Made by a program: the position numbers and the translations under genes
Shown: one piece after another, positions 7,714-39,597 of the stretch
Numbering within the stretch: the first letter of the stretch is position 1
Layout of the letters: each line of letters opens with the position of its first letter
NCBI RefSeq assembly: GCF_044324875.1
Contig: NZ_CP172185.1
DNA from: Escherichia coli
GTDB lineage: Bacteria; Pseudomonadota; Gammaproteobacteria; Enterobacterales; Enterobacteriaceae
Strand: one strand, 5' to 3'
Length of the DNA stretch: 64,000 bases
The notes under the pieces: generated by a model
Database searches by the model: none
Told to the model about the DNA's origin: nothing
The model's input: only the letters and a program-made list of their open reading frames with translations

Positions 7714-7761
7714 GATTCTTCACCCGTCAGAACAGGGGCGCGGTTCCGCGCCCCTGAGTGA

Positions 7762-8967: not shown

Positions 8968-8981
8968 CGTATTTCTCCTGA

Positions 8982-10851: not shown

Positions 10852-11033
10852 TATTTACCTCCACCAACAGACAGCTGTGTACGGTCGAGATATCGCGCCA
10901 CCAGCCACGACCAGAACAGGCACAACGCCCCGGCAACAACAAACCCCGCCGGGGGATAAATCAGCCAGGCACCATACGCCAGCAAAAGCGCCCCCAGCAC
11001 GCCCACCAGAGGCGCGAGAATCAGCATGATCAT
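10851..11033 (-). CDS. Small two-helix membrane protein
   Basis: 60-aa ORF with two hydrophobic segments between large terminase and portal. Confidence 0.35.
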
Positions 11034-11044
11034 AATTACCTCAG

Positions 11045-22223: not shown

Positions 22224-23161
22224 CCCCTGAATCCTGCCGGGATCTGGCTGTAGTCCACGTTGTCGTAACTGGCTTTGAAGTACGGGTCTTCGCGTTTTTC
22301 TGTGTGCGTGCTGACGGACGGCGATAAGCGCAGGGAAAGCTCATCCCATTTTTCCCGCAACTTCGACGGGCTGAGCACGTTACGGCACCAGAACGGATCG
22401 CGGCTGACGCGGCTGTACATCTCGCAGATTTGTTTGTGAGTACGACCATCCTGCACACACATCAGGCGAATTTCGTTTGCCCAGGCTGTCCAGTTAGGTT
22501 CTTTGGGACGAACCACCTCGCCGTCACATTCGGCGGCCTGCTCGTACAGGGCGATGATTTTTTTCCAGAGCCACTGTGCGCAGGTCAAATCATCCTGCGT
22601 TCCCCACTGGCGCTTTTTAGGGCTGAATACAACCGCATCAGGATGGCGAGTTAAAAAATCCTGTTCATCCATCTGCGTGTCCGGTTGCGAAGCGTCCGGA
22701 CGAGAAGGTTTTTTATCTGATGGATCATGTTTTGATTTTACTGACGGATCCCCGCCAGATTCTGACGGGTGAAAACCCGCTTTTTTGCCAGATTTCGACG
22801 CATCAAATTTTGACGGGTCAGATTTTGATGCGTCAGATTTTGACGGGTCAGAATCTGACAGTTGAGAAAATGCCGCTGCCTGAAGCTTCGCAACGTTAAG
22901 CTGATAAACATTCGACGCATTGCGGTTACCCTGGCGACGCGCCTTACGCGTTAACCAGCCTTCTGCTTCCAGCCGTGCGATAGCCGTTCTGACGGTACTC
23001 ATCCCCGCGCCAATCTGGCGGGCAATGGTTTCAATTGATGGCCAGCACACACCTTCGTCATTACTGAAATCAGCCAGGCGGGCCATAATTGCCACGCTGG
23101 ATAATTTCATGCCTGACGCAGCGCAACCATCCCATACATAGCCGGTTAATTTAGTGCTCAT
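22220..23161 (-). CDS. Replication initiation protein, O-like with N-terminal HTH
   Basis: 313-aa ORF with HTH near the N-terminus and an internal iteron-encoded repeat, in the O position. Confidence 0.65.
   Translation of the reverse strand: MSTKLTGYVWDGCAASGMKLSSVAIMARLADFSNDEGVCWPSIETIARQIGAGMSTVRTAIARLEAEGWLTRKARRQGNRNASNVYQLNVAKLQAAAFSQLSDSDPSKSDASKSDPSKFDASKSGKKAGFHPSESGGDPSVKSKHDPSDKKPSRPDASQPDTQMDEQDFLTRHPDAVVFSPKKRQWGTQDDLTCAQWLWKKIIALYEQAAECDGEVVRPKEPNWTAWANEIRLMCVQDGRTHKQICEMYSRVSRDPFWCRNVLSPSKLREKWDELSLRLSPSVSTHTEKREDPYFKASYDNVDYSQIPAGFRG
22762..22860. repeat. Iteron array (putative phage origin) inside the O-like gene
   Basis: About six direct repeats of a 12-15 bp unit related to GATTTTGACGGG. 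Confidence 0.5.
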
Positions 23162-23509
23162 GACCGACCTCTATTTCCCTGAATTTACGACGAAACTGTT
23201 CGAGCGGACTGAAGCATTCATGCTCATAGCCTTCGCGGAGGTAGATAACCCGTTGTGTTTCCGGCTCCCAACGAATGACTCTGACGGGCACTCCGTAGTG
23301 ATCTTTGAACCAGCGGTTAACTTGTCGCAAAGGACTGTCTCCTTCTGCCGGTTGAAATCACCCACAGCCCACTCTGCAAAGCTGTGGGTTACAATTTCCC
23401 TGTCACCTAGTACATTCACTGCATAGCAATATTCCACCTTCGCTTTTCCACCCGGTACAGGAAGCGCAATCAGTTGCGAGCGACGGTAGTGTGTTGTTAA
23501 ACTGTTCAT
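23151..23509 (-). pseudogene. Small early gene upstream of O, apparently frameshifted (or two overlapping short ORFs)
   Basis: Protein-like N-terminal half in one frame and protein-like C-terminal half (...[23 protein letters not shown]...) in the -1 frame ending at the O start; junction near 23325-23350. Confidence 0.35.
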
Positions 23510-24075
23510 GCGTTAGTTTCTCCACAACCAGAAGCAATCGACGCCACGACGCCCGGAGCTGCACACTCGCGGGCGTCATTACTTTCTGAAATGCAAAAAA
23601 TTTTGTAGACAAGTGCTGCATGCTCCTGCAGCTTCGAAATTGAGAGATACAGCTCGTCGTTAATTGCTGTCTTCTCATGCGGTTCCACTACACCGTCTTC
23701 GATTGCTGAACGAATCTGTTTTGAATAACTGCCGATCTGTTCAATGACTTCCAGCAGACGCTGGTTAATATCGGCGTTGTCCACATCCTCGACGTCAGGA
23801 AGAGACACAAAGACGCCATTTGCAGACTGCGCCACAGCATCAGCAATGAAATGAGTGCCACCAGCACGCTGTAAAACCATTGCCCATCCCAGCGGGAAAA
23901 TCTGATCGCCATCTGCACGAAGGCGGTTGAATAAAGCGTTTTCTGTTACATCGAGCCAGTCAGCCGCTTCAGCGTAACCACCCGGCAACGCCGCGATAGT
24001 TTTTCTGACAGCTTTCACGTACCACTCAGGCTGTTTTTCTATTTTCCAGTGATGCTTACCCACGATTAGCCTCAT
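23506..24075 (-). CDS. Putative CII-like early regulatory protein
   Basis: 189-aa ORF in the cII-equivalent position directly downstream of cro; position-based. Confidence 0.35.
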
Positions 24076-24106
24076 CGTTCTGTGGTTAAAAATTGAAAGT
24101 GTTCTG

Positions 24107-24310
24107 CTAATCTTTCGGATAGATATCCGGTCTTAAGTCAGATTTCGTAATTGCACCTGACGTGCATTGCTCAAGTTTTTTAGCCAGCACAAAACTGGCT
24201 TTTTTATAGCCATTGAAAACCAGCCGTAAGTAGCCAGGTGTTGAGCCAACTTTTCCGGCCAACTCGCCCTGCTGTTCTTTGGTTAAAGAGTCCCAATACG
24301 CTTTCATACA
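24107..24310 (-). CDS. Cro-like repressor (YdaS/Cro family HTH)
   Basis: 67-aa product from Met 24310 with C-terminal DLRPDIYP-like motif; the listed longer ORF reads through the operator region. Confidence 0.7.
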   Translation of the reverse strand, partial: CMKAYWDSLTKEQQGELAGKVGSTPGYLRLVFNGYKKASFVLAKKLEQCTSGAITKSDLRPDIYPKD

Positions 24311-24397
24311 ATATGTACCTCCGGTATACATATTACATGATTGAAATGAACCTTCAAGATACTTGTACCTTAACGGTACAAGGGTTTTAATTTCGTT
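24311..24397. promoter_or_regulatory. Immunity switch: divergent promoters with palindromic operators
   Basis: Palindromes ATGTACC-tcc-GGTATACAT (24314-24332) and CTTGTACC-ttaac-GGTACAAG (24362-24382); no Shine-Dalgarno before the cI ATG. Confidence 0.6.
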
Positions 24398-25072
24398 ATG
24401 AAAACAATCCATGACATCCGGCGGTCTAACGCCAGAAAACTGAGAGATGGTGTTGGCGGGAATTCTTCCTTTGCCACTATGATTGATCGCGAGCCAACCC
24501 AGACCAGCAGGTTTATGGGAGATGGTGCTACTAAAAATATCGGTGACAGCATGGCACGACACATCGAAAAATGTTTCGACCTGCCTGTCGGATGGCTCGA
24601 TCAAGAACACCAGACAACGAACATCACAAAAAAACCTGATGTTTCAATCACTAATAAACAAATCACATTAGTCCCTGTCATATCATGGGTACAGGCCGGA
24701 GCATGGAAAGAAGTTGGATATTCTGAGGTTGATTTGAGCACAGCAGAAACGTATCCCTGCCCTGTACCCTGTGGGGAAATGACTTATATCTTGCGGGTGA
24801 TAGGTGATTCAATGATTGATGAGTACCGCCCGGGAGACATGATTTTTGTCGATCCTGAAGTACCTGCCTGCCACGGTGACGACGTTATTGCATTGATGCA
24901 CGATACAGGTGAAACCACCTTCAAAAGGTTGATAGAAGATGGGACACAGCGTTATCTCAAAGCGTTAAACCCAAACTGGCCTGAGCCTTACATTAAGATC
25001 AACGGTAATTGCTCTATAATTGGAACTGTGATTTTCTCAGGAAAACCAAGAAGATACAAAATCAAAGCCTAA
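24398..25072 (+). CDS. CI-like repressor with HTH and LexA-like S24 peptidase domain
   Basis: 224-aa ORF; N-terminal HTH and C-terminal GDSM...K autocleavage domain. Confidence 0.85.
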   Translation: MKTIHDIRRSNARKLRDGVGGNSSFATMIDREPTQTSRFMGDGATKNIGDSMARHIEKCFDLPVGWLDQEHQTTNITKKPDVSITNKQITLVPVISWVQAGAWKEVGYSEVDLSTAETYPCPVPCGEMTYILRVIGDSMIDEYRPGDMIFVDPEVPACHGDDVIALMHDTGETTFKRLIEDGTQRYLKALNPNWPEPYIKINGNCSIIGTVIFSGKPRRYKIKA

Positions 25073-25084
25073 TCAATGTTTATG

Positions 25085-25108
25085 AACCTGCTTCGGCAGG
25101 TTTTTTTA
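25085..25108 (+). terminator. Intrinsic terminator after the repressor gene
   Basis: CCTGC-ttcg-GCAGG hairpin followed by seven T. Confidence 0.6.
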
Positions 25109-25111
25109 TAC

Positions 25112-25140
25112 TTGACAATGTACCTTTGGGATACATAATG
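25112..25140 (+). promoter_or_regulatory. pL-like promoter with overlapping operator
   Basis: TTGACA, 16-17 bp spacer containing TGTACC...GGATACA operator-like half-sites, then CATAAT. Confidence 0.55.
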
Positions 25141-25226
25141 TGCCCAAGAGAAACAACAAACAGGCAGGACGCCCACGAAGTAGCCGCCTGGAGCATATGA
25201 AGTCTAGGATGATTCGTTAGCAACAA

Positions 25227-25261
25227 AAAAGCGCCCTACAGGACGCTTAGCTCTTTAACAA
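25227..25261 (+). promoter_or_regulatory. Hairpin plus rrn-type boxA-like element in pL leader
   Basis: GC-rich hairpin 25231-25246 then GCTCTTTAACAA at 25250-25261, matching the rrn boxA core. Confidence 0.4.
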
Positions 25262-25306
25262 TCAGGTCCCCATCAACAAGTAACTGATAACTTGAGGAGG
25301 TGTGAA

Positions 25307-25513
25307 ATGCACAAAACAGAACCAAAAATCGTCGCGCCCGGATACACAAATGAGGAAATTTACGAGTGGATGGCAAAGAAGCTGGCAGCTATAAACCAGC
25401 TTCGTGAAGTGCTGTCTTATCGACAGGAAACAATAGACTCCTTAAAAAAACTGGATCAGGAAATCACGGTTTTATCACAGGATGTTACTTTAGATATTGT
25501 GCAGACAAATTAG
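25307..25513 (+). CDS. Hypothetical 68-aa protein, first gene after pL
   Basis: Strong GAGGAGG ribosome-binding site 6 nt before ATG; no arginine-rich motif. Confidence 0.5.
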   Translation: MHKTEPKIVAPGYTNEEIYEWMAKKLAAINQLREVLSYRQETIDSLKKLDQEITVLSQDVTLDIVQTN

Positions 25514-25919
25514 GATCCCATTCATTTTCGTCAAAATCATCAAAGTGATGAATTTGTGATCTCCAGTCTCGATAATCTAAAAATTTCTGGGCGGTTACGC
25601 TTATTTTATCAAGCGTGAGTTCATCCTGAATTGAAAGAAGAAGTTCATCAAATTTCATCTCATTAATCTGTTTTGGCATCCAGTGATGCTTCATCAGAAT
25701 AAGGTGAACCAGAGCTTTTTTCCCATTCAACTGATTATAGGGAGTGCCGAATTTCTTCCGGTGCTCATGTAAGACAAGGTCCAGAAGAGTAAGTAATGTT
25801 GCCCTTGATTCAACTTTGCTTATTTCGACTGATGACACTACCCCACTGATTTCAATGCCCCGATACTTTCCAACATTTTCACAGTGGGATTTGTACAGCG
25901 TATAGATATTACCGGACAT
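25485..25919 (-). CDS. Hypothetical 144-aa protein antisense to the pL operon
   Basis: AT-rich ORF with AAGGA ribosome-binding site; 3' end overlaps 25307-25513 convergently by 29 nt. Confidence 0.5.
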   Translation of the reverse strand: MSGNIYTLYKSHCENVGKYRGIEISGVVSSVEISKVESRATLLTLLDLVLHEHRKKFGTPYNQLNGKKALVHLILMKHHWMPKQINEMKFDELLLSIQDELTLDKISVTAQKFLDYRDWRSQIHHFDDFDENEWDPNLSAQYLK

Positions 25920-26070
25920 TTCTTTTCCTTTTGCGTTGTTGGGGATAACCAGATTAACCGAATCCTTGTTGTTGGGGAATAACCAGGTCCACCTCGCCTG
26001 ATGTGGCTAAAAGCAGGCACATAACAGCTAAGTATTTTCAACCAGAGAGAATCCTTAGCGTTGTGGTGAA

Positions 26071-26387
26071 TGCGGCTCAGCGCACGCGGGTTAAGGTTGA
26101 GGCTGACAGTCGACCTTCTGTGGATACCCACCCGCCTGGTGTGCAACCTTCGCCAGGCACCGGGAGGCACCCGGCACCACAACTTTATGCTGCGTGTAGT
26201 CTTGGCGGTACCAGCTTTTACCCTTGCTTCCGGCTGGTACCGTCCTTTTTACAAAACAGAGAAGAGCATTACCGGACGACGGGCTCATAACTCAATCCAT
26301 CCGGGCGGCTGCCACCGCAGGTGTTCTTCTCTGTTTTGTGGAGAAACTAATCGGCTTTGCAGGGTCGATATGATGAGGAGCAGCAAA
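26071..26387. other. GC-rich structured noncoding segment (candidate cis-acting RNA or ncRNA)
   Basis: Nested inverted repeats including a 12-bp stem GGCGGTACCAGC/GCTGGTACCGTC (26211-26251); short ORFs in several frames without ribosome-binding sites. Confidence 0.3.
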
Positions 26388-26750
26388 ATGGCTAGCGAAC
26401 GCAGTACTGATGTGCAAGCATTTATCGGGGAGCTGGACGGCGGCGTATTTGAAACCAAAATCGGCGCAGTTCTCAGTGAAGTCGCTTCCGGTGTGATGAA
26501 CACGAAAACCAAAGGTAAGGTCTCACTCAACCTGGAAATCGAACCATTTGATGAAAACCGTGTGAAAATCAAACACAAACTCTCATATGTTCGCCCGACT
26601 AACCGCGGGAAAATTTCCGAAGAAGACACCACCGAAACGCCGATGTATGTCAATCGCGGTGGTCGCCTGACTATTCTGCAGGAAGACCAGGGACAATTAC
26701 TGACTCTTGCCGGTGAACCTGACGGAAAACTCCGCGCAGCAGGTCATTAA
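26388..26750 (+). CDS. Hypothetical early-left protein (CPS-53 YfdP-like)
   Basis: 120-aa product from Met 26388 preceded by GAGGAG; the upstream in-frame extension from 26070 looks noncoding. Confidence 0.5.
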   Translation: MASERSTDVQAFIGELDGGVFETKIGAVLSEVASGVMNTKTKGKVSLNLEIEPFDENRVKIKHKLSYVRPTNRGKISEEDTTETPMYVNRGGRLTILQEDQGQLLTLAGEPDGKLRAAGH

Positions 26751-26815
26751 TATCGTTCTTAATTAACCGATTATTTATCTCATCACTGAATATCTTAATA
26801 TAGTGAGGACTTATT

Positions 26816-27640
26816 ATGTCTCAAAACTTAGACGCAACCGCATTTAATCAAATCCATGCCCTTATTTCTGCTCAGGGTGTTAATGAAATTATCAGTAAGA
26901 TTGGTGCCGATGCTGTGGCATTGCCTGAGAATTTCCGCATTCATGATCTGGAAAAATTTAATTTAAATCGCTTCCGTTTCCGTGGTGCGCTTTCCACTGC
27001 CAGCATCGATGACTTTACCCGTTATTCTAAAGATCTTGCAGATGAAGGCACCCGCTGCTTTATCGATGCTGATAATATGCGTGCCGTCAGTGTGCTTAAC
27101 CTGGGTACTATTGATGAACCAGGTCACGCAGATAACACCGCCACTCTCAAACTGAAAAAGACAGCACCGTTCTCTGCTCTGTTGTCTGTTAATGGCGAGC
27201 GTAACTCCCAGAAATCACTGGCAGAATGGATTGAAAACTGGGCCGACTACCTTGTGGGCTTTGATGCTAATGGTGACGCCATTCAGGCAACCAAAGCGGC
27301 GGCGGCTATCCGTAAAATCACAATTGAAGCGAACCAGACCGCTGATTTTGAAGATAATGACTTCAGCGGCAAACGCTCCCTGATGGAGTCTGTCGAAGCG
27401 AAGACCAAAGACATTATGCCAGTGGCATTTGAATTTAAATGCGTTCCGTTTGAAGGCCTGAAAGAACGTCCATTTAAATTACGCCTCAGCATTATCACTG
27501 GCGATCGTCCTGTACTGGTTCTGCGCATTATTCAGCTGGAAGCGGTGCAGGAAGAAATGGCTAACGAATTTCGTGATCTGCTTGTTGAGAAATTCAAAGA
27601 CAGCAAAGTAGAAACCTTTATTGGTACTTTCACCGCCTGA
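26816..27640 (+). CDS. DUF2303-type protein (YfdQ-like)
   Basis: 274-aa ORF recalled as matching E. coli CPS-53 YfdQ. Confidence 0.6.
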
Positions 27641-27767
27641 TTTCATTACTGCAAATGCCCCTGCGGGGGAATTTATGGAAACGTAATTAACTCAATAATC
27701 GCCGGATGGTGAGGACTTCCTTTTACCAGAATTCAGCGCGGTGCAGCGCATATACGTGGAGAACAAA

Positions 27768-28304
27768 ATGTCATTTATTAAAACTTTTTCCGGGAAGCAT
27801 TTTTATTATGACAAGATAAATCAAGACGACATCGTTATTAACGATATCGCGGTTTCCCTTTCAAATATCTGTCGCTTTGCAGGACATCTTTCACATTTCT
27901 ACAGCGTCGCCCAACATGCGGTGCTTTGCAGCCAACTGGTGCCGCAGGAATTTGCTTTTGAAGCGTTAATGCATGATGCAACAGAAGCGTATTGCCAGGA
28001 CATCCCGGCGCCACTGAAACGCCTTCTTCCTGACTATAAACGGATGGAAGAAAAAATAGACGCCGTAATCCGTGAGAAATACGGGTTACCCCCAGTTATG
28101 AGTACACCCGTGAAATATGCCGATCTCATCATGCTGGCAACTGAACGCCGCGATCTCGGGCTTGATGATGGCTCTTTCTGGCCAGTACTGGAAGGTATCC
28201 CGGCAACAGAGATGTTCAAAGTTATTCCACTGGCACCGGGCCATGCCTACGGGATGTTTATGGAACGCTTCAACGAGTTATCGGAATTACGCAAATGTGC
28301 ATAA
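27768..28304 (+). CDS. HD-domain phosphohydrolase (YfdR-like 5'-deoxynucleotidase)
   Basis: 178-aa product with H..HD metal-binding signature (HAVL...MHDATEAY). Confidence 0.65.
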   Translation: MSFIKTFSGKHFYYDKINQDDIVINDIAVSLSNICRFAGHLSHFYSVAQHAVLCSQLVPQEFAFEALMHDATEAYCQDIPAPLKRLLPDYKRMEEKIDAVIREKYGLPPVMSTPVKYADLIMLATERRDLGLDDGSFWPVLEGIPATEMFKVIPLAPGHAYGMFMERFNELSELRKCA

Positions 28305-29173
28305 CTCATGTAGTTAGTTTTTCTGGCGGGAGAACATCCGCATATCTTGTTCACCTGATGGAAGAACAAAGAAAGGCTGGCAATAACGTCTGCTACATCT
28401 TTATGGATACCGGTTGCGAACATCCGCTGACATACCGCTTTATCCGGGAGGTTGTGAAGTTCTGGGACATACCACTAACTGTGTTACAGGTCGATATAAA
28501 TCCTGAGCTTGGGCAGCCAAATGGTTATACAGAATGGGAGCCAACGGATATTCAGACACGAATGCCGGTGCTTAAACCGTTTATGGACATGGTTAAAAAG
28601 TACGGCACGCCATACATCGGCGGCGCGTTCTGTACTGACAGGCTAAAACTCATCCCTTTCACGAAATACTGCGATAACCATTTCGGGCGAGGTAATTACA
28701 TCACATGGCTGGGTATTCGTGCAGACGAACCCCGTAGGCTGAAACCGAAATCGGGCGTCCGGTATCTTGCCGAGCTGTCAGATTTTGATAAGTCGGATGT
28801 TATCCGGTGGTGGCGAAAACAACCTTTTGATTTGCAAATCCCGGAGCATCTCGGGAACTGTGTTTTCTGCATCAAAAAGTCAACGCAAAAGCTGGGGCTT
28901 GCATGTAAAGACGAACCAGGTCTGATGCGAGTTTTTAATGAGCTGGTTACAGGCAAACACGTCAGGGATGGTCATCGCAGAACAGGTAAAGACATTATGT
29001 ACCGTGGTCACCTGACGCTTGACGGAATTGCCAGAATGTCTGCCAACAGCGACTACAGAAATTTGTATCAGGCGATGGTACAGGCCAGGCGATTCGATAC
29101 CGGCTCGTGTTCAGAGTCATGTGAAATCTGGGGTGATCAATTGGAATTGGAATTCGAAGAGGTAGGGGTATGA
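28295..29173 (+). CDS. PAPS reductase-like PP-loop protein
   Basis: 292-aa ORF with N-terminal SFSGGRTS PP-loop ATP-pyrophosphatase motif. Confidence 0.7.
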   Translation: MCITHVVSFSGGRTSAYLVHLMEEQRKAGNNVCYIFMDTGCEHPLTYRFIREVVKFWDIPLTVLQVDINPELGQPNGYTEWEPTDIQTRMPVLKPFMDMVKKYGTPYIGGAFCTDRLKLIPFTKYCDNHFGRGNYITWLGIRADEPRRLKPKSGVRYLAELSDFDKSDVIRWWRKQPFDLQIPEHLGNCVFCIKKSTQKLGLACKDEPGLMRVFNELVTGKHVRDGHRRTGKDIMYRGHLTLDGIARMSANSDYRNLYQAMVQARRFDTGSCSESCEIWGDQLELEFEEVGV

Positions 29174-29514
29174 CAACCGAAATTAACTACCATGCACTGC
29201 TTGAGCGCGCACGGAATAAAGTGCAGAGCATTGAGTTCGCCTTAACACAGAGTGCATTCGCTGAGATTCGCGCTGAGCTTGAAAATGATTTAGAACTGGC
29301 ACGGATTGCACTGGCATCTCTGGAAGTTGAGCCAGATGAACGCGCAGCCTATGAATTATTTATGGAAAAGCGTTTCGGTAAAACAGTCGATCGTCGGAGA
29401 GCAAAAAACGGCGATAACGAATACATGGCATGGGATATGACTCTCGGTTGGATCATCTGGCAGCAACGAGCTGGTATCCATTTTTCAACAATGTCACAAC
29501 AAGAGGTGAAATAA
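29170..29514 (+). CDS. Hypothetical protein
   Basis: 114-aa ORF overlapping previous stop by 4 nt. Confidence 0.45.
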   Translation: MTTEINYHALLERARNKVQSIEFALTQSAFAEIRAELENDLELARIALASLEVEPDERAAYELFMEKRFGKTVDRRRAKNGDNEYMAWDMTLGWIIWQQRAGIHFSTMSQQEVK

Positions 29515-29628
29515 TAGAGCCATACAGCCTCACACTCGATGAGGCCTGTTCATTGCTCAATGATATCCAGACCTACCATCGCCGCATCAATGCGGCTTTT
29601 TCTTGCGTGTAATTGCGGAGACTTTGCG

Positions 29629-29847
29629 ATGTACTTGACACTTCAGGAGTGGAACGCTCGCCAGCGACGCCCAAGAAGCCTTGAAACAGTTCGTCGATGG
29701 GTGCGCGAATGCAGGATATTCCCTCCTCCGGTTAAGGATGGAAGAGAGTATCTGTTCCACGAATCAGCGGTAAAGGTTGACTTAAATCGACCAGTAACAG
29801 GTAGCCTTTTGAAGAGGATCAGAAATGGGAAGAAGGCGAAGTCATGA
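29629..29847 (+). CDS. xis: Excisionase Xis (lambda)
   Basis: 72-aa product MYLTLQEWNARQRRPRSLETVRRW... matches lambda Xis as recalled. Confidence 0.9.
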   Translation: MYLTLQEWNARQRRPRSLETVRRWVRECRIFPPPVKDGREYLFHESAVKVDLNRPVTGSLLKRIRNGKKAKS

Positions 29848-30895
29848 GCGCCGGGATTTACCCCCTAACCTTTATATAAGAAACAATGGATATTACTGCT
29901 ACAGGGACCCAAGGACGGGTAAAGAGTTCGGATTAGGCAGAGACAGGAGGATAGCAATTACTGAAGCAATACAGGCAAACATTGAGTTATTTTCAGGACA
30001 CAAACACAAGCCTCTGACAGCGAGAATCAACAGTGATAATTCTGTTACGTTACATTCATGGCTTGATCGCTACGAAAAAATCCTCGCCAGCAGAGGAATC
30101 AAGCAGAAGACACTTATAAATTACATGAGCAAAATTAAAGCAATAAGGAGGGGGCTACCTGATGTTCCACTTGAAGACATCACCACAAAAGAAATTGCAG
30201 CAATGCTCAATGGATACATAGACGAGGGCAAGGCGGCGTCAGCCAAGTTAATCAGATCAACACTGAGCGATGCATTCCGAGAGGCAATAGCTGAAGGCCA
30301 TATAACAACAAACCCGGTCGCTGCCACTCGCGCAGCAAAATCAGAGGTAAGGAGATCAAGACTTACGGCTGACGAATACCTGAAAATTTATCAAGCAGCA
30401 GAATCATCACCATGTTGGCTTAGACTTGCAATGGAACTGGCTGTTGTTACCGGGCAGCGAGTTGGTGATTTATGCGAAATGAAGTGGTCTGATATCGTAG
30501 ATGGATATCTTTATGTCGAGCAAAGCAAAACAGGCGTAAAAATTGCCATCCCAACAGCATTGCATGTTGATGCTCTCGGAATATCAATGAAGGAAACACT
30601 TGATAAATGCAAAGAGATTCTTGGCGGAGAAACCATAATTGCATCTACTCGTCGCGAACCGCTTTCATCCGGCACAGTATCAAGGTATTTTATGCGCGCA
30701 CGAAAAGCATCAGGTCTTTCCTTCGAAGGGGATCCGCCTACCTTTCACGAGTTGCGCAGTTTGTCTGCAAGACTCTATGAGAAGCAGATAAGCGATAAGT
30801 TTGCTCAACATCTTCTCGGGCATAAGTCGGACACCATGGCATCACAGTATCGTGATGACAGAGGCAGGGAGTGGGACAAAATTGAAATCAAATAA
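29825..30895 (+). CDS. int: Integrase Int (lambda, tyrosine recombinase)
   Basis: 356-aa product MGRRRSHERRDLPPNLYIRNNGYYCYRDPRTGKEF... matches lambda Int as recalled. Confidence 0.95.
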   Translation: MGRRRSHERRDLPPNLYIRNNGYYCYRDPRTGKEFGLGRDRRIAITEAIQANIELFSGHKHKPLTARINSDNSVTLHSWLDRYEKILASRGIKQKTLINYMSKIKAIRRGLPDVPLEDITTKEIAAMLNGYIDEGKAASAKLIRSTLSDAFREAIAEGHITTNPVAATRAAKSEVRRSRLTADEYLKIYQAAESSPCWLRLAMELAVVTGQRVGDLCEMKWSDIVDGYLYVEQSKTGVKIAIPTALHVDALGISMKETLDKCKEILGGETIIASTRREPLSSGTVSRYFMRARKASGLSFEGDPPTFHELRSLSARLYEKQISDKFAQHLLGHKSDTMASQYRDDRGREWDKIEIK

Positions 30896-30983
30896 TGATT
30901 TTATTTTGACTGATAGTGACCTGTTCGTTGCAACAAATTGATAAGCAATGCTTTTTTATAATGCCAACTTAGTATAAAAAAGC
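30896..30983. other. attL: phage P' arm and 15-bp att core
   Basis: TTAGTATAAAAAAGC at 30969-30983 is the reverse complement of the lambda core GCTTTTTTATACTAA, preceded by lambda P' arm sequence. Confidence 0.85.
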
Positions 30984-31029: not shown

Positions 31030-32313
31030 GTGAACACATTTTCAGTTTCCCGTCTGGCGCTGGCATTGGCTTTTGGCGTGACGCTGACCGCCTGTAGCTC
31101 AACACCACCCGATCAACGTCCTTCTGATCAAACCGCGCCTGGTACCTCTTCTCGCCCGATTCTGTCGGCAAAAGAAGCGCAGAATTTCGATGCTCAACAC
31201 TATTTTGCGTCCCTGACGCCAGGTGCTGCAGCGTGGAATCCTTCCCCGATTTCCCTGCCTGCGCAACCTGACTTTGTTGTCGGCCCGGCAGGTACTCAAG
31301 GTGTAACGCATACCACGATTCAGGCGGCGGTAGATGCGGCAATTATCAAGCGTACCAACAAGCGCCAGTATATTGCCGTGATGCCTGGTGAGTATCAGGG
31401 AACGGTGTATGTCCCTGCTGCTCCGGGTGGAATTACTCTGTACGGTACAGGTGAAAAACCGATTGATGTGAAGATTGGGCTTTCCCTTGATGGGGGCATG
31501 AGCCCTGCCGACTGGCGTCACGACGTCAACCCGCGCGGCAAATATATGCCAGGTAAACCAGCGTGGTATATGTACGATAGCTGCCAGAGCAAACGCAGCG
31601 ACAGTATCGGTGTTCTCTGCTCTGCGGTCTTCTGGTCACAAAACAATGGCCTGCAACTGCAAAATCTGACCATCGAAAACACGCTGGGCGATAGCGTAGA
31701 TGCGGGTAACCATCCGGCGGTGGCACTGCGTACTGATGGTGACAAAGTGCAGATCAATAACGTCAACATTCTCGGTCGTCAGAATACCTTCTTTGTCACC
31801 AACAGTGGTGTGCAAAACCGTCTGGAAACCAACCGTCAGCCGCGTACTCTGGTGACCAACAGTTACATTGAAGGGGATGTGGATATCGTTTCTGGTCGCG
31901 GCGCAGTGGTGTTCGATAATACCGAATTCCGCGTGGTGAACTCTCGTACTCAGCAAGAAGCTTATGTGTTTGCACCGGCAACACTGTCTAACATCTATTA
32001 CGGTTTCCTCGCCGTAAACAGCCGTTTCAATGCTTCAGGTGATGGCGTGGCGCAACTGGGCCGCTCGCTGGATGTTGATGCTAATACCAACGGTCAGGTG
32101 GTGATCCGTGATAGTGCCATCAACGAAGGTTTTAACACGGCGAAACCGTGGGCCGATGCGGTGATTTCCAATCGTCCGTTTGCGGGTAACACCGGCAGCG
32201 TTGATGATAACGACGAAGTACAGCGTAATCTGAATGACACTAACTACAACCGCATGTGGGAATACAATAACCGCGGCGTGGGTAGCAAAGTGGTTGCAGA
32301 GGCGAAGAAGTAA
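31030..32313 (+). CDS. ybhC: Outer-membrane lipoprotein YbhC (pectinesterase-like), GTG start
   Basis: 427-aa product with lipoprotein signal LTACSS; K-12 synteny. Confidence 0.9.
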   Translation: MNTFSVSRLALALAFGVTLTACSSTPPDQRPSDQTAPGTSSRPILSAKEAQNFDAQHYFASLTPGAAAWNPSPISLPAQPDFVVGPAGTQGVTHTTIQAAVDAAIIKRTNKRQYIAVMPGEYQGTVYVPAAPGGITLYGTGEKPIDVKIGLSLDGGMSPADWRHDVNPRGKYMPGKPAWYMYDSCQSKRSDSIGVLCSAVFWSQNNGLQLQNLTIENTLGDSVDAGNHPAVALRTDGDKVQINNVNILGRQNTFFVTNSGVQNRLETNRQPRTLVTNSYIEGDVDIVSGRGAVVFDNTEFRVVNSRTQQEAYVFAPATLSNIYYGFLAVNSRFNASGDGVAQLGRSLDVDANTNGQVVIRDSAINEGFNTAKPWADAVISNRPFAGNTGSVDDNDEVQRNLNDTNYNRMWEYNNRGVGSKVVAEAKK

Positions 32314-32384
32314 AAAAGAAAACCCGATAGTCTGAACCATCGGGTTAATGAAACTGGGCGCTATATTTCATAGCGCCTTTTTTT
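32312..32384. terminator. Convergent intrinsic terminators between ybhC and ybhJ
   Basis: Two hairpins (32321-32348 and 32357-32384) with flanking A/T runs. Confidence 0.55.
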
Positions 32385-34644
32385 ACATCTGACGGTTTTT
32401 ATTGAAGTTAATCAAACTACCCGCCTTGATAATCTCGCGCTCTTCAGCAGTCAGACTTTCCATATAGAGCGTAATCTCTGTTACTGGCGCATCTTCATGG
32501 ATCACATAACCCTTAAACGTCGTACCCGGATTATCCAGCGCCGCTTTAATGCCAGGGATGTAAATGTAATCCCCCACTTCAAACGTTGGTGCTTCCGCCA
32601 TCTGCAGCGGTAACATCCCCCAGTTGATGACGTTAGAACGGTAGCGTTTAGTCGCGTACTCCTCGGCAATATTCGCCAGACCGCCAATCACACGCTGGCA
32701 GCTCGCCGCCTGCTCACGCGCAGAACCATCGCCTGGTTTCACCGCATAGACCATGCTGCCAATTTCAGTTTGCAGCGGATCAATATGCTCCTGACCAGCA
32801 ATCTGCTTAATGCGCGCAAACACCTCTGTCAGCTCGCTGACATTCCCCGCCAGACGCTGATTTTCCAGCTCAGCAGTCACTTTACTTCTGCCAACATAAC
32901 CGGGATCGCGGCGTGACAGGGTAAACTCCGCCAGACCAATCGGATTTGAACGATAAGAAGAGGTTTCACCGGAAGGGATCAGTTCGTCGGTGGTGGTCAC
33001 TTCGTCGAGGATCTTCGAGCACACTTTGAGGACGATATTGTCAGTCAGCGCCCCCAATTCCGGCCAGTCTTTAATGTTCGGTCCGTAAATCAGCGGTTGC
33101 TGAGTTGCCCCTTTCACAAAGCCCTGATAAACACGGTTTTTATACGGCGTTACATCGAAGGCGTACTCCGGCACGTTGTCCCAGCAATCGAGTTCGCTGG
33201 CAGAAGTTAAATAGCCACCGTTTGCCGCAGTCGCAGCGATAGAACGAGCGTCCATCAACGCCACCGCTGACATCTGCCCATTGGCTGGCTTAGAGCCTTC
33301 GCGGTTCGGGAAGTTACGCGTGGTGTGGCGAATACTCAAACCGTTGTTGATTGGCGTATCGCCCGCGCCAAAGCATGGGCCGCAGAACGCGGTTCTGATG
33401 ATTGCGCCTGCGCCAATCAAATCTGCTACCACACCTTTTTTGGCGAGATCCATAAACACCGGCTGTGATGACGGGTAAACCGCTAACGAGAAGGTGTCAT
33501 TGCCACAGGATTGACCGCGCAGTGCATTCGCCGCCGCGATGACGTTTTCGTAGTTACCGCCAGAACAGCCCGCGATAATCCCCTGCTGCACTTTCAGGCG
33601 ACCATTTTCCACTTTATCCAGCAGCGAGAGTTTGGCTTTACCGTGCGCCACGCGTTCGGACTCAATTTCAATCTCACGCAGAATGTCGGTCAGGTTCTGG
33701 TTCAGCGTGTCGATTTCATACACGTTGCTCGGGTGAAACGGCAGCGCAATCATTGGTTTGATGGCGCTTAAATCAACGCTGATGCAGCCATCGTAGTACG
33801 CCATCGGTTGAGGGTTAAGCTGGCAGTAATCCTGGCCGCGACCGTGCAGCGCCAGCCAGTTATGGACTTCTTCATCGGTTTGCCAGACAGAACTTAAACA
33901 GGTCGTTTCAGTGGTCATAACGTCAACGCTGTTACGGAAATCGGTAGAGAGCGCAGCAACACCGGGACCTACGAATTCCATCACTTTGTTTTTGACGTAG
34001 CCGTTTTTGAACACGGCACCGATGATAGCCAGCGCCACATCCTGTGGCCCCACATACGGCGCTGGTTTTCCGGTCAGATGCACCGCAACAACTCCCGGAT
34101 AGTCGATATCCCAGGTGTCATTAAGCAATTGTTTTACCAACTCGCCGCCGCCCTCACCGACTGCCATTGTCCCTAATGCACCGTAACGGGTGTGGCTGTC
34201 TGACCCGAGGATCATTTTGCCGCCGCCTGCCATCATCTCACGCATATATTGATGGATGACCGCAATATGCGGAGGCACAAAAATACCGCCATAACGCTGC
34301 GCTGCCGATAAACCAAAAACATGGTCATCACCGTTAATGGTGCCGCCGACGGCGCAAAGTGAGTTATGGCAGTTGGTCAGCACATACGGCAGCGGGAAAC
34401 GTTCCATACCGGACGCTTTAGCAGTCTGTACAATCCCAACAAAGGTAATATCGTGAGAGGCTAATGAATTAAACTTAATTTTAAGTTTATCCATATTTCC
34501 GGACGTATTATGAGAAGAGAGAATAGACCAGGCAATAGTGCCTTTTTTGGCTTCTTCTTTTTTAATTTCGCCGGTGAAATGTTCTTCGGCAATTATTTCG
34601 TTATTACTGGCGAGAAACACGCCTTTTTCAGATAACTTGATCAT
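32383..34644 (-). CDS. ybhJ: Aconitase-family protein YbhJ
   Basis: 753-aa product from Met 34644 with GGAG ribosome-binding site; K-12 synteny. Confidence 0.85.
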
Positions 34645-34721
34645 CAAATGCTCCAGATATCTGCGCACCGAGAAGTGCGCAGAAAGATAATAAATGGATA
34701 TACTCTAAATAATTAGAGTTG

Positions 34722-34826
34722 CAGGAAGGCGACTAGCGAGTGAATCCCCAGGCGCTTACATAAGTAAGTGACTGGGGTGAGCGAACGCAGACGCAGCACA
34801 TGCAACTTGAAGTATGACGAGTATAT
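34722..34826. repeat. ERIC-like intergenic repeat element
   Basis: GTGAATCCCCAGGCGCTTACATAAGTAAGTGACTGGGGTGAGCGAACGCAG... matches the enterobacterial repetitive intergenic consensus as recalled. Confidence 0.6.
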
Positions 34827-36260
34827 TTACAGCATGTTCCAGCCGATCAGCATATTCCACCACCACACACCGAGGGTGATATGTACCAGGAAGGTTAATA
34901 TCGTCAGTACCGCACCGACCAACCACCAGGATTTAATATCGTTGTAACCCACGCCAAAGATGACCGGACCTGCCGCGCCGCCATAGTGAGTAACCATGCC
35001 GCCATAGGAGTTGGAGAACAACAGTGCCAGCGCGGTTAACATTAACGGTGCGCCGGAGACGTTCGCCAGCATGGCAAATACCGGTAACATAGCAACGATA
35101 TAGGCACTACCGGAAGCGAAGAAATAACGAACGATGATGCTGAGGAAAATAATAACGAAGAAAGCAACGTTACCGTGACCATCAAATGCCAGGTTATTTT
35201 TAAAGACTTCAGCTAACCATTCGAAGAATTTAACTTTCGATAATAAGGAGCTTAAGCCGATAATACCGCCGTACCAGATTAAGGTATTCCAGCCGCCTTT
35301 ATTTTTAACCACGTCTTCCCAGGTAACGATACCCAGCAGCAGCATAGTCGCCATAACAACGATTGCCACGGTGGATTCATCAACCCCCAGTGACTTACTG
35401 AAAATCCAGCCCAGCAGCGCCAGCACGAAGACACCGAGCAGCATTTTTTCGCGGATTTTCATCGGTCCCAGTTCGGCAAGGCCCGCTTTGGCGATAGTTT
35501 TGTTATCCACCTTCTTAATTTCTGGCGGATACATGGTGTAAATCACCAGCGGGGTGACCAGCAGCATAATGATACCCGGCAATCCGGCGGCCAGCGCCCA
35601 TCCACCCCAGCTAATTTGCAGGTGCAGAATGTCGTTGATCATTTTCAGCGCCAGAATGTTCCCCGCCATTGCGGTAAAGAACATATAGCTGGTGGTTTTG
35701 GTGACCATGTAAATGGACATCATCAGGTAATGTCCGACACGACGCGGGCTTTTTTCAGGTTCTGACCCCAAAGCCACCGCCACGCTGTTGATGATCGGTA
35801 ACACAATGCCGCCCGCACGCGCGGTGTTAGACGGTGTTGCCGGAGCCAGTACCAGATCGAGAAATACCGTAACGTAACCCAGGCCCAGGGTAGTGCTACC
35901 AATTTTACCAATCAGCAAATAGGCAATACGTTTACCTAAGCCGGTGGTCACAAATGCGGCGCTTAAGGTAAACGCCGAGAACACCAGCCAGGTGGTACCT
36001 GAAGAGTAACCGCTTAATACGGCGGTGGTTTTAAACGCACCGTCGGATAAGTTACCGACCACCACCATGGAGGCAGCAACGGCAATTAACAGTACGACAG
36101 GTTCCGGGAAAGGCTTGATAACCAGCCCCACAATGGCCGCCAGGTAAATACCAAAAAGCACCCACGCCAGTTCGCTTAATCCTGCCGGAGCTGGCATAAA
36201 GCCAATAATACATGGGATCGCTAATATCAGAATTAGCTTCCATAACGATTTTTTATTCAT
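34827..36260 (-). CDS. ybhI: Anion permease YbhI (DASS family)
   Basis: 477-aa polytopic membrane protein; K-12 synteny. Confidence 0.9.
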   Translation of the reverse strand: MNKKSLWKLILILAIPCIIGFMPAPAGLSELAWVLFGIYLAAIVGLVIKPFPEPVVLLIAVAASMVVVGNLSDGAFKTTAVLSGYSSGTTWLVFSAFTLSAAFVTTGLGKRIAYLLIGKIGSTTLGLGYVTVFLDLVLAPATPSNTARAGGIVLPIINSVAVALGSEPEKSPRRVGHYLMMSIYMVTKTTSYMFFTAMAGNILALKMINDILHLQISWGGWALAAGLPGIIMLLVTPLVIYTMYPPEIKKVDNKTIAKAGLAELGPMKIREKMLLGVFVLALLGWIFSKSLGVDESTVAIVVMATMLLLGIVTWEDVVKNKGGWNTLIWYGGIIGLSSLLSKVKFFEWLAEVFKNNLAFDGHGNVAFFVIIFLSIIVRYFFASGSAYIVAMLPVFAMLANVSGAPLMLTALALLFSNSYGGMVTHYGGAAGPVIFGVGYNDIKSWWLVGAVLTILTFLVHITLGVWWWNMLIGWNML

Positions 36261-36335
36261 TTAAAATCCTGTTCTTTCTGTATGACTCATACAGAAGTCC
36301 TTTATTGATTGTCCTTATCCTGACAACGAATTTTT

Positions 36336-37388
36336 TCAGGGAAGAAAAACTTCACCGGAAAATATTTTTCTGGTTGTCCGAATAACAGATGCGCGTAACG
36401 TCGTGGCATCCTGACCTTCATTACTTAAATGAACGTCGAGCGCACCACTGGGGTGTTCAATATTGATATTGCCGTATCCTACAGAAGGGACGATTTGTCG
36501 GGTGACGGTGCCTTCCAATGCACAACTACTGGAAATGGCAATAGCACCGGTTATCGCCAGCGCGCGATGGCAAGAATGCGGCATAAAATAACGCACATTA
36601 ATTGCTCCGCCTTTCTGCGCTGGAGAAATAAGCACAGGTTTAGGGATAACCATATTACTGACATCGCCTAATCCCATTGCTTTACCCGCTTGTAGACGGA
36701 TAGATTCAATGCGGGCTAATAATGCTTTGTCGGCATCCAGCTCCGCCGGTAATTCATAGCCTGTTTTTCCCAGATATTCAGCAGGAATAATGACAACTGG
36801 CATCGCCATATCGATACAGGTCACCGGGACATCGTCAAAATAATCAATCTGATTATCAGTCGGGAAGATTTTTCCGGTTTTGGTTCCGGCGGCATTCAGG
36901 AAAGTGAGCGCAACCGGTGCGGCAGTACCCGGTACGCCGTCAATTCTGGCGCTACCCTCGTACTCGACAACACCATTTGGCGTTTGCACATCAGCTTCGA
37001 TGAACGTACCCGTATTGACGTTGCGGATACGTACGCGGGTAACTGGCGAAGTCGCTGCAATCAAACCATTTTCAATGGCGAATGCCCCAACCCCAGACAA
37101 CATATTGCCGCAGTTTGGTGTTGTATCGACACGCTGCTCATGGACAATAACCTGAGCAAACAGATAATCGACATCAGCACGCGGATCGTCGGAATGGCTA
37201 ATAATGGCGACTTTACTGGTCAGCGGATTACCGCCGCCAATACCGTCAATTTCCAGATCGTTACCGGAACCCATAATTGCCATCAATATTTTATCGCGCT
37301 GCGTTTGATCTTCGGGTAGATGTTCCGCTAACAGGAACGCGCCCCTCGAGGTTCCCCCTCTCATCATCACGCAGGGTATTTTTTTCAT
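36336..37388 (-). CDS. ybhH: PrpF-family isomerase YbhH
   Basis: 350-aa product; K-12 synteny. Confidence 0.9.
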   Translation of the reverse strand: MKKIPCVMMRGGTSRGAFLLAEHLPEDQTQRDKILMAIMGSGNDLEIDGIGGGNPLTSKVAIISHSDDPRADVDYLFAQVIVHEQRVDTTPNCGNMLSGVGAFAIENGLIAATSPVTRVRIRNVNTGTFIEADVQTPNGVVEYEGSARIDGVPGTAAPVALTFLNAAGTKTGKIFPTDNQIDYFDDVPVTCIDMAMPVVIIPAEYLGKTGYELPAELDADKALLARIESIRLQAGKAMGLGDVSNMVIPKPVLISPAQKGGAINVRYFMPHSCHRALAITGAIAISSSCALEGTVTRQIVPSVGYGNINIEHPSGALDVHLSNEGQDATTLRASVIRTTRKIFSGEVFLP

Positions 37389-37571
37389 AATAATGCCCTC
37401 AATTTAAAAACATAACTTATTGCGATATGGTTACATTAAGGGCAAAGCATCTCTAATGACTTTAGCTCAACGATTAATAACATTTTTTCATTAATTTAAG
37501 TTAGCTAAATGCAGTTAAAATTTTTAACGGCCAGTCACCCAAAATCGACGCTTCCATTTTCCGGAGTAATA

Positions 37572-38525
37572 ATGAAGCATGAATTATCAAGTATGAAGGC
37601 ATTTGTCATACTGGCAGAGTCCAGTTCATTTAACAATGCCGCTAAATTACTCAATATTACGCAACCTGCATTAACGCGAAGAATAAAAAAGATGGAGGAA
37701 GATTTACATATCCAACTATTTGAGCGTACAACTCGCAAGGTTACGTTAACAAAAGCAGGAAAAAGATTGCTCCCGGAGGCGCGGGAATTAATAAAGAAAT
37801 TCGATGAAACGCTTTTTAATATTCGTGATATGAATGCTTATCATCGTGGTATGGTGACATTAGCGTGTATTCCGACCGCAGTATTTTATTTTTTACCGCT
37901 GGCAATCGGTAAATTTAATGAGCTTTATCCCAATATTAAAGTGCGGATTCTGGAACAAGGTACGAATAATTGCATGGAATCGGTGCTGTGTAACGAATCA
38001 GACTTTGGCATAAACATGAACAACGTCACAAATTCATCCATCGATTTTACCCCCCTGGTCAACGAGCCGTTCGTGCTGGCCTGTCGGCGTGACCATCCAT
38101 TGGCCAAAAAGCAGCTTGTAGAATGGCAGGAGTTAGTGGGTTACAAAATGATTGGCGTACGCTCCTCCAGCGGCAACCGACTGTTGATAGAACAACAGCT
38201 GGCCGACAAGCCCTGGAAGCTGGACTGGTTTTACGAAGTGCGTCATCTTTCGACGTCATTAGGACTGGTGGAGGCGGGACTGGGAATTTCGGCGCTTCCT
38301 GGTCTGGCAATGCCCCATGCACCCTATTCTTCGATTATTGGTATCCCGCTGGTGGAACCGGTTATACGTCGAACATTGGGGATTATTCGCCGCAAAGATG
38401 CCGTGCTTTCTCCGGCAGCTGAACGCTTTTTTGCCTTGCTGATTAATTTGTGGACTGACGATAAAGACAATTTGTGGACCAATATCGTCGAACGCCAGAG
38501 ACATGCGTTACAGGAGATAGGTTAA
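37572..38525 (+). CDS. ybhD: LysR-type transcriptional regulator YbhD
   Basis: 317-aa product from Met 37572 with GGAG ribosome-binding site; divergent from ybhH. Confidence 0.85.
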   Translation: MKHELSSMKAFVILAESSSFNNAAKLLNITQPALTRRIKKMEEDLHIQLFERTTRKVTLTKAGKRLLPEARELIKKFDETLFNIRDMNAYHRGMVTLACIPTAVFYFLPLAIGKFNELYPNIKVRILEQGTNNCMESVLCNESDFGINMNNVTNSSIDFTPLVNEPFVLACRRDHPLAKKQLVEWQELVGYKMIGVRSSSGNRLLIEQQLADKPWKLDWFYEVRHLSTSLGLVEAGLGISALPGLAMPHAPYSSIIGIPLVEPVIRRTLGIIRRKDAVLSPAAERFFALLINLWTDDKDNLWTNIVERQRHALQEIG

Positions 38526-38565
38526 TACACCGGCGCAGAAGAGACTGCGCCGGGTAAATCAGCGG

Positions 38566-39597
<1,032 letters not shown>

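Follow-up and report, generated by a model that had tools for sequence, protein, structure and literature searches.

The window analyzed here is a 64,000-nucleotide stretch of Escherichia coli DNA (contig NZ_CP172185.1), and we focused on the ybhD-ybhHIJ cluster within it, a candidate locus for the utilization of an organic acid. Four intact genes were observed. Three of these lie on the minus strand: ybhJ (32383-34644), encoding a 753-residue Fe-S hydratase of the aconitase family; ybhI (34827-36260), encoding a 477-residue anion carrier of the DASS family; and ybhH (36336-37388), encoding a 350-residue PrpF-family isomerase of the short, LigU-like form. The fourth, ybhD (37572-38525), is divergent on the plus strand and encodes a transcriptional regulator of the LysR type (LTTR), 317 residues long from its RefSeq start at 37572, with the longest open reading frame (ORF) beginning at 37509. 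The start of ybhJ was placed at the ATG at 34644, with a Shine-Dalgarno sequence (GGAG, 34654-34651) six bases upstream; here the longest ORF extends to 34668. The sequence queries began two codons later, at 34638, which affected none of the results. The original prediction for 32383-38525 was a LysR regulator divergent from genes for an isomerase (PrpF), a transporter (DASS) and a hydratase of the aconitase family. This range runs exactly from the ybhJ stop codon to the ybhD stop codon, every family assignment was confirmed with Pfam and NCBIfam, and the gene content and order were borne out by the profile matches and by the RefSeq annotation of near-identical E. coli genomes, which gives the order ybhC, ybhJ, ybhI, ybhH, ybhD, pgl, ybhA, modC. 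The cluster is flanked by ybhC on one side and pgl on the other, with ybhA and modABC as further neighbors.

The stretch from 32000 to 39000 matched E. coli chromosomes at up to 98.9% identity, and at least 80% of it was found unbroken in 5316 of 5426 complete E. coli genomes (~98%). Ratios of non-synonymous to synonymous substitution rates (dN/dS) for all four genes were between 0.02 and 0.05 against E. albertii and between 0.03 and 0.10 against Citrobacter, indicating strong purifying selection and ruling out a decaying remnant. Because the genes are intact, nearly always present in the species and under low dN/dS, we conclude that all four are functional.

YbhH matched the PrpF family (PF04303) over residues 1-350 with an E-value of 1.5e-166. 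The K-12 protein is PDB entry 6OTV, from which the YbhH of the window differs at 4 residues, and the next structure matches were the (4E)-oxalomesaconate delta-isomerase LigU (1e-93), Mii and PrpF. Residue K59 of YbhH aligned with the position of the LigU K66M entry (6P3H) and C93 with that of the C100S entry (6P3K), and both were kept in every homologue aligned, from which we take the catalytic Lys/Cys pair to be present. A multiple alignment showed that YbhH and LigU share a short form that lacks an insert of ~18 residues. Identity was highest to LigU (46%), followed by Mii (44% over the N-terminal 242 residues; 3G7K, 1.2e-66) and by the PrpF proteins encoded beside YbhJ-like genes in Firmicutes (36-41%). 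On the PrpF equivalog model YbhH scored 185, below the cut-off of 440.

YbhI matched the Na_sulph_symp/DASS family (PF00939) at 1e-194 and scored 553 bits on TIGR00785, where the cut-off is 199. Its full-length identity to CitT (citrate:succinate) and TtdT (tartrate:succinate), two antiporters of E. coli, was 33-34%, and its closest solved relatives were the plant transporters DiT1 and DiT2 and LaINDY. These five are exchangers, also by RefSeq product names, and their relatedness places YbhI in the exchanger branch of the family; exchange by YbhI itself is a prediction. Two E. coli loci offer a parallel, since in both ttdR-ttdABT (L-tartrate) and citCDEFXG-citT (citrate) a DASS exchanger is encoded together with enzymes that take the imported acid to oxaloacetate. 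The ttd locus also shares with the ybh cluster a divergent LysR regulator and an Fe-S hydro-lyase, but the enzymes of these two systems (the class-I fumarase-type TtdAB and citrate lyase) belong to other families than YbhH and YbhJ.

YbhJ matched the aconitase domain (PF00330, 1.5e-87) and the C-terminal swivel domain (PF00694, 2.3e-6). Its score of 1532 bits was far above the cut-off of 641 for the equivalog PRK11413, named simply 'hydratase' (NF008503, NCBIfam), but below the cut-offs of canonical aconitase equivalogs (e.g. PRK07229, 340 vs 612) and far below that of the AcnD model (63 bits vs 1420). The cysteine ligands of the [4Fe-4S] cluster (C358, C421 and C424 of mitochondrial aconitase) correspond to those in 'GCSGG' and 'FCGPCFG' and were invariant in the 9 catalytic family members. 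Equivalents of His101, His147, Asp165-Ser-His167, Glu262, Arg447/Arg452 and Ser642/Arg644 were also retained, in the numbering of pig aconitase, and included a DSH motif, the catalytic Ser in 'GDGSARE' and the Arg pair in 'TRNFPNR'. Two YbhJ-like proteins from Firmicute metagenome-assembled genomes, P0148 (L012 8001-10115) and P0155 (L013 1175-3436), lacked the Fe-S cysteines and the DSH motif, and in both loci a Macro-domain gene and an FGGY-kinase gene come after the YbhJ-like gene. These are probably degenerate, non-catalytic paralogues, to judge from the missing residues, and they were left out of the YbhJ-family profile. The genome context of the nearest metagenomic representatives (P0121, P0148 and P0155) was uninformative. 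We also noted that the YbhJ of strain TUM14771 is annotated with 751 residues, two C-terminal codons fewer than the 753 of the window ORF and of the major E. coli cluster (region 32383-32389), and that many E. coli YbhJ entries in the databases have 598-648 residues, suggesting alternative start calls or lineage-specific truncations.

The regulator YbhD contained an N-terminal HTH_1 domain and a LysR_substrate domain (Pfam). Between ybhH and ybhD lies an AT-rich divergent control region of 183 bp (37389-37571) in which we found an LTTR-type dyad, ATTAAT-N11-ATTAAT, at 37473-37495. The dyad has no second copy in the window (0 expected by chance) and has been kept in E. albertii, Citrobacter and Edwardsiella, which makes it a candidate YbhD site. 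Two further blocks, 37453-37463 (AAAGTCATTAG on the ybhH strand) and 37427-37436, were conserved in Escherichia, Citrobacter and Edwardsiella. A ChIP-exo site for YbhD has been reported, and ybhH is strongly up-regulated in a ybhD deletion (PMC9068703), so YbhD represses ybhH. The same study cites control of the locus by Nac from EcoCyc and iModulonDB, and describes a change in growth on glycerol plus L-malate upon deletion of ybhD (PMC9068703), a malate-dependent phenotype that fits a dicarboxylate-exchanging carrier. We considered whether YbhD is a close paralogue of TtdR and rejected this, as their relatedness is confined to the helix-turn-helix (HTH) region. Since the YbhD regulation and the YbhH structure are published, the description of the locus as uncharacterized in the original prediction holds only with regard to substrate: our literature search, which did not extend to Blank et al. 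2002 or to the LigU structure paper, returned no substrate assignment for ybhH, ybhI, ybhJ or ybhD.

The comparison with related loci in other bacteria narrowed the range of likely substrates. Species-representative genomes searched with the YbhJ-family profile yielded at least 599 loci, and contexts were taken from the best 80. All but two of these 80 (78) came from gut or rumen anaerobes, with proteins 65-73% identical to E. coli YbhJ; the hosts included Lachnospiraceae, Hungatella, Enterocloster, Blautia, Megasphaera, Acidaminococcus, Ellagibacter and many Collinsella. Neighbors within 10 kb were counted for the 43 loci that were neither Collinsella nor enterobacterial, using ORF clustering, Pfam and NCBIfam matches, and tblastn with annotated neighbors. 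Citrate enzymes were present in 21 of the 43 loci, among them members of the isocitrate dehydrogenase (IDH) family (16 loci), citrate synthase (11 loci) and the citrate lyase subunits CitEF (5 loci). A LysR regulator was found in 12 loci, a PrpF-family gene in 5, a MatC-type carrier in 4 and an RraA-like aldolase in 3. In six loci (L018, L019, L025, L026, L034, L035) the YbhJ-like gene was followed by citrate synthase and then IDH, with the order inverted in a seventh (L038), and an arrangement of the YbhJ-like gene followed by citD, citE and citF (with citG and citC) also recurred. With homologues of 65-73% identity in citrate synthase/IDH operons or beside citrate lyase, the simplest reading of these arrangements is that members of the YbhJ family are aconitases for citrate and isocitrate. 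The PRK11413 family thus appears, from its gene neighborhoods, to occupy the aconitase position in many gut anaerobes, which together with the specific substrate hypothesis below is the new element of this analysis. The earlier suggestion of di- or tricarboxylate utilization was accordingly supported, and the comparative context favors tricarboxylates of the aconitate/citrate type in particular.

Several loci resembled the E. coli cluster more closely, the four-gene module being found at differing sites on the chromosome. E. albertii and Citrobacter carry the four-gene module in full synteny. In Klebsiella aerogenes a LysR-PrpF-DASS-DASS-YbhJ cluster adjoins citAB, oadGAB and citS, that is, a citrate-fermentation island. 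Acidaminococcus fermentans, a documented fermenter of trans-aconitate and citrate, has these four functions arranged and oriented as in the ybh cluster: a LysR gene (L076 6298-7278, minus strand) divergent from a PrpF gene (7541-8683), followed by genes for a MatC/CitMHS carrier (8702-9973) and a YbhJ-like protein (9986-12289), the ORFs having been chosen manually. The two YbhJ proteins share 66% identity along their full length. In place of a DASS carrier there is one of the CitMHS/MatC type, the PrpF protein is a member of the long subfamily (41% identity to YbhH), and the LysR protein shares just the HTH region with YbhD (26% identity); the role of the A. fermentans locus is likewise putative. 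Among the genes of its trans-aconitate pathway, the A. fermentans genome paper names Acfer_0630/0631, a 'MatC carrier + aconitate hydratase domain protein' pair (PMC3035267) that is possibly the one in L076.

Three other observations concern these relatives. In K. aerogenes the second DASS-like carrier (420 residues; L006 6683-7945) sits between the ybhI and ybhJ orthologues, at the position where Escherichia carries an ERIC repeat. An apparent frameshift in Edwardsiella tarda divides ybhI into two overlapping ORFs (L004 6483-7915); ybhD, ybhH and ybhJ are intact there. Clostridial clusters (L011 199-10202, L040 8567-15866, L091 2881-5192) combine a 650-residue aconitase, one or two YbhJ paralogues, a long-form PrpF protein, an IDH-family dehydrogenase and a LysR regulator, with an RraA-like aldolase added in L040, and could represent a larger tricarboxylate pathway.

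We are confident that the ybh cluster serves the uptake, isomerization and hydration of a carboxylate, and we think it probable that this substrate is a tricarboxylate of the aconitate type. Trans-aconitate itself is a candidate that we put forward with some reserve. Our tentative proposal for the cluster as a whole is an operon under repressor control for the catabolism of an exogenous tricarboxylate, of plant or dietary origin and with an aconitate skeleton, trans-aconitate being the most probable one. Grasses, maize and sugar cane are rich in trans-aconitate, and its reduction by rumen bacteria contributes to grass tetany. The acid also inhibits the housekeeping aconitase, so a dedicated aconitase in such an operon would make sense. 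The proposal draws on the context results above and on three published findings. In Bacillus velezensis FZB42 trans-aconitate is assimilated through tarR-tarAB, a locus for a LysR regulator, an aconitate isomerase of the PrpF family and an importer; the genome screen in the same study flagged enterobacterial PrpF homologues at 38-40.5% identity to TarA (PMC11495376; identities taken from its tables); and isolates of Citrobacter, Enterobacter and Providencia assimilate trans-aconitate (PMC13188880). Like the ybh cluster, tarR-tarAB has its LysR gene divergent from an operon led by the PrpF-family gene, followed by that of a carboxylate importer. It differs in that TarR is an activator whereas YbhD behaves as a repressor, in that the importer belongs to the major facilitator superfamily rather than DASS, and in having no dedicated aconitase-family gene where the ybh cluster has ybhJ. 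TarA is moreover a long-form PrpF protein of 376 residues, whereas YbhH is of the short form with 350, and aconitate isomerase activity of YbhH is putative.

In the mechanism that we propose, YbhD would keep the ybhHIJ promoter off until the effector acid appears, in line with the published repression. YbhI would then import the acid in exchange for a C4-dicarboxylate (succinate or malate), by analogy with its paralogues CitT and TtdT. YbhH would use Lys59 and Cys93 for a 1,3-allylic proton shift that converts the non-metabolizable isomer to cis-aconitate, the chemistry being that of the family and the substrate being suggested by gene context. YbhJ, as a [4Fe-4S] hydratase of the aconitase type, would add water to give citrate or isocitrate, as its conserved residues and the operons of its homologues suggest. 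The product would enter citrate lyase under anaerobic conditions or the tricarboxylic acid (TCA) cycle, and the succinate formed could pay for more uptake.

Several observations weigh against this proposal. On the YbhH side, the protein scored 515 bits on the 4-oxalomesaconate tautomerase equivalog (NF033377, NCBIfam), above the cut-off of 440; its closest characterized relative is LigU and not an aconitate isomerase; and the Firmicute PrpF proteins encoded beside YbhJ-like genes belong to a different, longer subfamily. In the YbhJ family, Asp100 is replaced by Cys ('NCHNS', compared with 'MDHNV' in LeuC and 'IDHSV' in AcnA), Asn258 by Val ('DVMTTE') and Ser643 by Ala (in 'GDGSARE'), and because of these replacements the specificity of YbhJ may differ from that of canonical aconitase. 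Inactivation of ybhJ reportedly left the residual aconitase activity of acnAB mutants unchanged (Blank et al. 2002; the cells were uninduced and not anaerobic). A later paper, citing this result, called the ybhJ product 'catalytically inactive' (PMC4054840), again in cells that were not induced or anaerobic. With the tblastn search using annotated neighbors, no citrate-related neighbors were found at the 35 YbhJ loci of the GC-rich Collinsella, a provisional result. A Providencia rettgeri protein, AI-79, that is 38.5% identical to TarA had <1% of the aconitate isomerase activity of TarA (PMC11495376, Table S4). Judging from its primer-derived termini (it ends in GDVYVP), AI-79 is a probable YbhH orthologue; the construct begins at the internal 'MRGGTSK' and so probably lacks ~8 N-terminal residues. 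In E. coli itself, K-12 derivatives make trans-aconitate only with a foreign isomerase and accumulate 37 g/L of it aerobically with no visible re-use (PMC12492653). Our literature search found no enzyme or transport assay for E. coli YbhH, YbhI or YbhJ.

Two alternatives we regard as unlikely, to about the same degree. According to the first, the substrate is a C7 keto-tricarboxylate of the oxalomesaconate type, with YbhH acting as a (4E)-oxalomesaconate delta-isomerase like LigU and GalD, and YbhJ replacing LigJ/GalB to make 4-carboxy-4-hydroxy-2-oxoadipate or an analogue. The equivalog score of YbhH, its 46% identity to LigU, and the short architecture and Lys/Cys pair that the two have in common all point this way. 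Oxalomesaconate is chemically a 4-oxo-homoaconitate and, on chemical reasoning, a plausible substrate for an aconitase-family enzyme. The RraA-like genes, members of the fold family of the CHA aldolase, in three Firmicute YbhJ-like loci (L024, L040, L083) would also fit, one of these loci (L040) including a YbhJ paralogue and a PrpF gene as well. In the protocatechuate 4,5-cleavage and gallate pathways an isomerase (LigU/GalD) is followed by a hydratase (LigJ/GalB), as YbhH would be by YbhJ, but that hydratase is an amidohydrolase or of the GalB type and not of the aconitase type. The accompanying genes are also missing. No ring-cleavage dioxygenase, LigJ/GalB hydratase or LigK/GalC aldolase was found in the window or in related enterobacterial loci, and the modules of E. 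coli, Citrobacter, E. albertii, Klebsiella and Edwardsiella had no dioxygenase, KCH hydratase or CHA aldolase gene of the gallate or protocatechuate 4,5-cleavage pathways. The ybhH gene likewise lacks the dioxygenase, hydrolase and aldolase genes of the LigU/GalD pathways as neighbors. Oxalomesaconate is formed by O2-dependent ring cleavage, which is unlikely in the gut, and the homologues of YbhJ with 65-73% identity lie in citrate synthase/IDH and citrate lyase clusters, a context of citrate and not of aromatic compounds.

The second of these alternatives is a branched C5 dicarboxylate (itaconate, methylitaconate, citraconate or mesaconate), isomerized by a Mii-like YbhH, hydrated by a DmdAB-like YbhJ and exchanged by YbhI with malate or succinate. 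Mii was a strong structural match to YbhH, and in the nicotinate fermentation of Eubacterium barkeri a PrpF-family isomerase and a hydratase of the aconitase family catalyze successive steps. Mii/DmdAB in that fermentation and AcnD/PrpF in the 2-methylcitrate cycle are known consecutive pairs of these two families acting on acids of the aconitate or itaconate type; the ybh cluster has neither prpBC nor dimethylmalate lyase genes adjacent to it. One UniRef name for the Edwardsiella YbhJ orthologue is '2,3-dimethylmalate dehydratase large subunit', the nearest solved relatives of YbhI are exchangers of dicarboxylates (2-oxoglutarate/malate), and the L-malate phenotype of the ybhD mutant (PMC9068703) is compatible with such a substrate. 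Against this, the cluster contains no citramalate or dimethylmalate lyase gene, the context of the YbhJ homologues is that of citrate and not citramalate, and the literature search returned no link of ybhH or ybhI to C5 acids. A bolder reading, which we consider slightly more improbable still, has YbhH and YbhJ acting not on aconitate but in a CoA-independent route for an unsaturated acid of host or dietary origin whose metabolism is not known from E. coli (itaconate or citraconate to citramalate, or an acid of the 4-oxo-homoaconitate type), which YbhI would exchange for malate or succinate. On this reading the YbhJ family, having Cys instead of Asp100, would also be an unrecognized class of aconitase with a housekeeping role in many gut Firmicutes and Actinobacteria.

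We have little confidence in a role in the utilization or exchange of L-malate with YbhH and YbhJ as accessories, since malate requires neither a PrpF isomerase nor an aconitase-type hydratase and E. coli already has DctA, DcuABC, fumarases and malic enzymes. This role was proposed in the 2022 study of LysR regulators, in which deletion of ybhD altered growth on glycerol plus L-malate and the regulon was tabled as 'L-malate utilization related' (PMC9068703), a phenotype explained equally well by a de-repressed exchanger that takes malate as counter-substrate. Least credible of all is a YbhJ without catalytic activity, an aconitase paralogue that serves regulation or the response to oxidative stress, in a cluster that encodes no pathway: the description as inactive, the H2O2 sensitivity and low NADPH of a ybhJ mutant (PMC4054840), the appearance of ybhJ among the oxidative-stress-related hits of a biofilm screen and the replacement of Asp100 by Cys are set against cluster ligands and catalytic Ser, His and Arg residues that are invariant across the family, a dN/dS of 0.03 for ybhJ, homologues that fill the aconitase slot of citrate synthase/IDH operons, and the different appearance of the truly degenerate paralogues P0148 and P0155, which lack these residues. 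The experiment of Blank et al. 2002 reportedly addressed just the residual aconitase contribution in uninduced cells.

The ybhD-ybhHIJ cluster is a known and partly studied set of y-genes and as such only modestly interesting, but ybhHIJ is among the remaining conserved y-gene operons of the best-studied bacterium. If the proposal of exchange-driven catabolism of an aconitate-type tricarboxylate is correct, three y-genes and their regulator would gain a function, the cluster would become a third member beside the CitT and TtdT fermentation loci, and there would be an explanation for the PRK11413 'hydratase' family. Should the proposal fail, the cluster would be an ordinary uncharacterized carboxylate locus.

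The spacer between ybhI and ybhJ (182 bp) is mostly filled by a copy of ERIC, an intergenic repeat unit, in the form of a 129-bp imperfect palindrome at 34698-34826 whose right end abuts the ybhI stop codon. An ERIC-like repeat had been predicted here at 34722-34826; the repeat is real and its right end at 34826 is correct, but its terminal inverted arms (34698-34723 and 34801-34826) place the left boundary at 34698, ~24 bp further out. A 44-nt ERIC core, based on the ERIC1R/ERIC2 primers, matched 34740-34783 with 1 mismatch, where 0 matches were expected in shuffled sequence. The element occurs at a median of 10 places per E. coli genome. At the ybhI-ybhJ position it was observed in E. coli (TUM14771) and E. 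albertii and was absent from Citrobacter, Edwardsiella and Klebsiella, which identifies it as a passenger of the Escherichia lineage within the operon. The RNA of the operon strand folds at -45.6 kcal/mol (z = -5.4) and, having no U-tract, the repeat is not a terminator. It would be co-transcribed with the operon and might, speculatively, at most modulate the level of ybhJ relative to ybhHI.

An Rfam scan returned just two matches, both sub-threshold, which are explained by the ERIC copy and by coding conservation in ybhI. The first, to V_AS5, covered 34698-34821 over the full length of the model, Rfam having no ERIC family as such. The second, to the Yersinia antisense small RNA Ysr283, lay at 35544-35795 on the plus strand, antisense to ybhI, with 41 bits compared with a gathering threshold of 58 (E = 8.9e-9); it probably reflects the coding conservation of ybhI, and could mark an antisense transcript.

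A promoter and terminator scan found nothing beyond shuffle expectation except convergent terminator hairpins between ybhC and ybhJ (32321-32378). These comprise a minus-strand hairpin at 32346-32321 followed by TTCTTTTTT, the likely terminator of ybhJ and the operon, and a bidirectional hairpin at 32356-32378. Two other hairpins lie on the minus strand within the operon. A perfect 9-bp hairpin, TCTGCGCAC-N6-GTGCGCAGA, is located at 34660-34683 between the ERIC copy and the ybhJ ribosome-binding site and ends 5 nt 5' of the ybhJ Shine-Dalgarno sequence. The 75-bp ybhH-ybhI spacer contains a hairpin with a 10-bp stem (36275-36297), which is not convincing as a terminator because no U-tract follows it on the mRNA strand.

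Beyond ybhC the window contains the early region of a lambdoid prophage (22000-30950), which matched Shigella phage SfIV at 97.7% identity across 73% of the query. In strain TUM14771 ybhB is instead directly beside ybhC. A lambda-type integrase ORF (29825-30895) was observed at the end of the prophage, 135 bp from ybhC, and the prophage therefore occupies the classical attB-lambda site.

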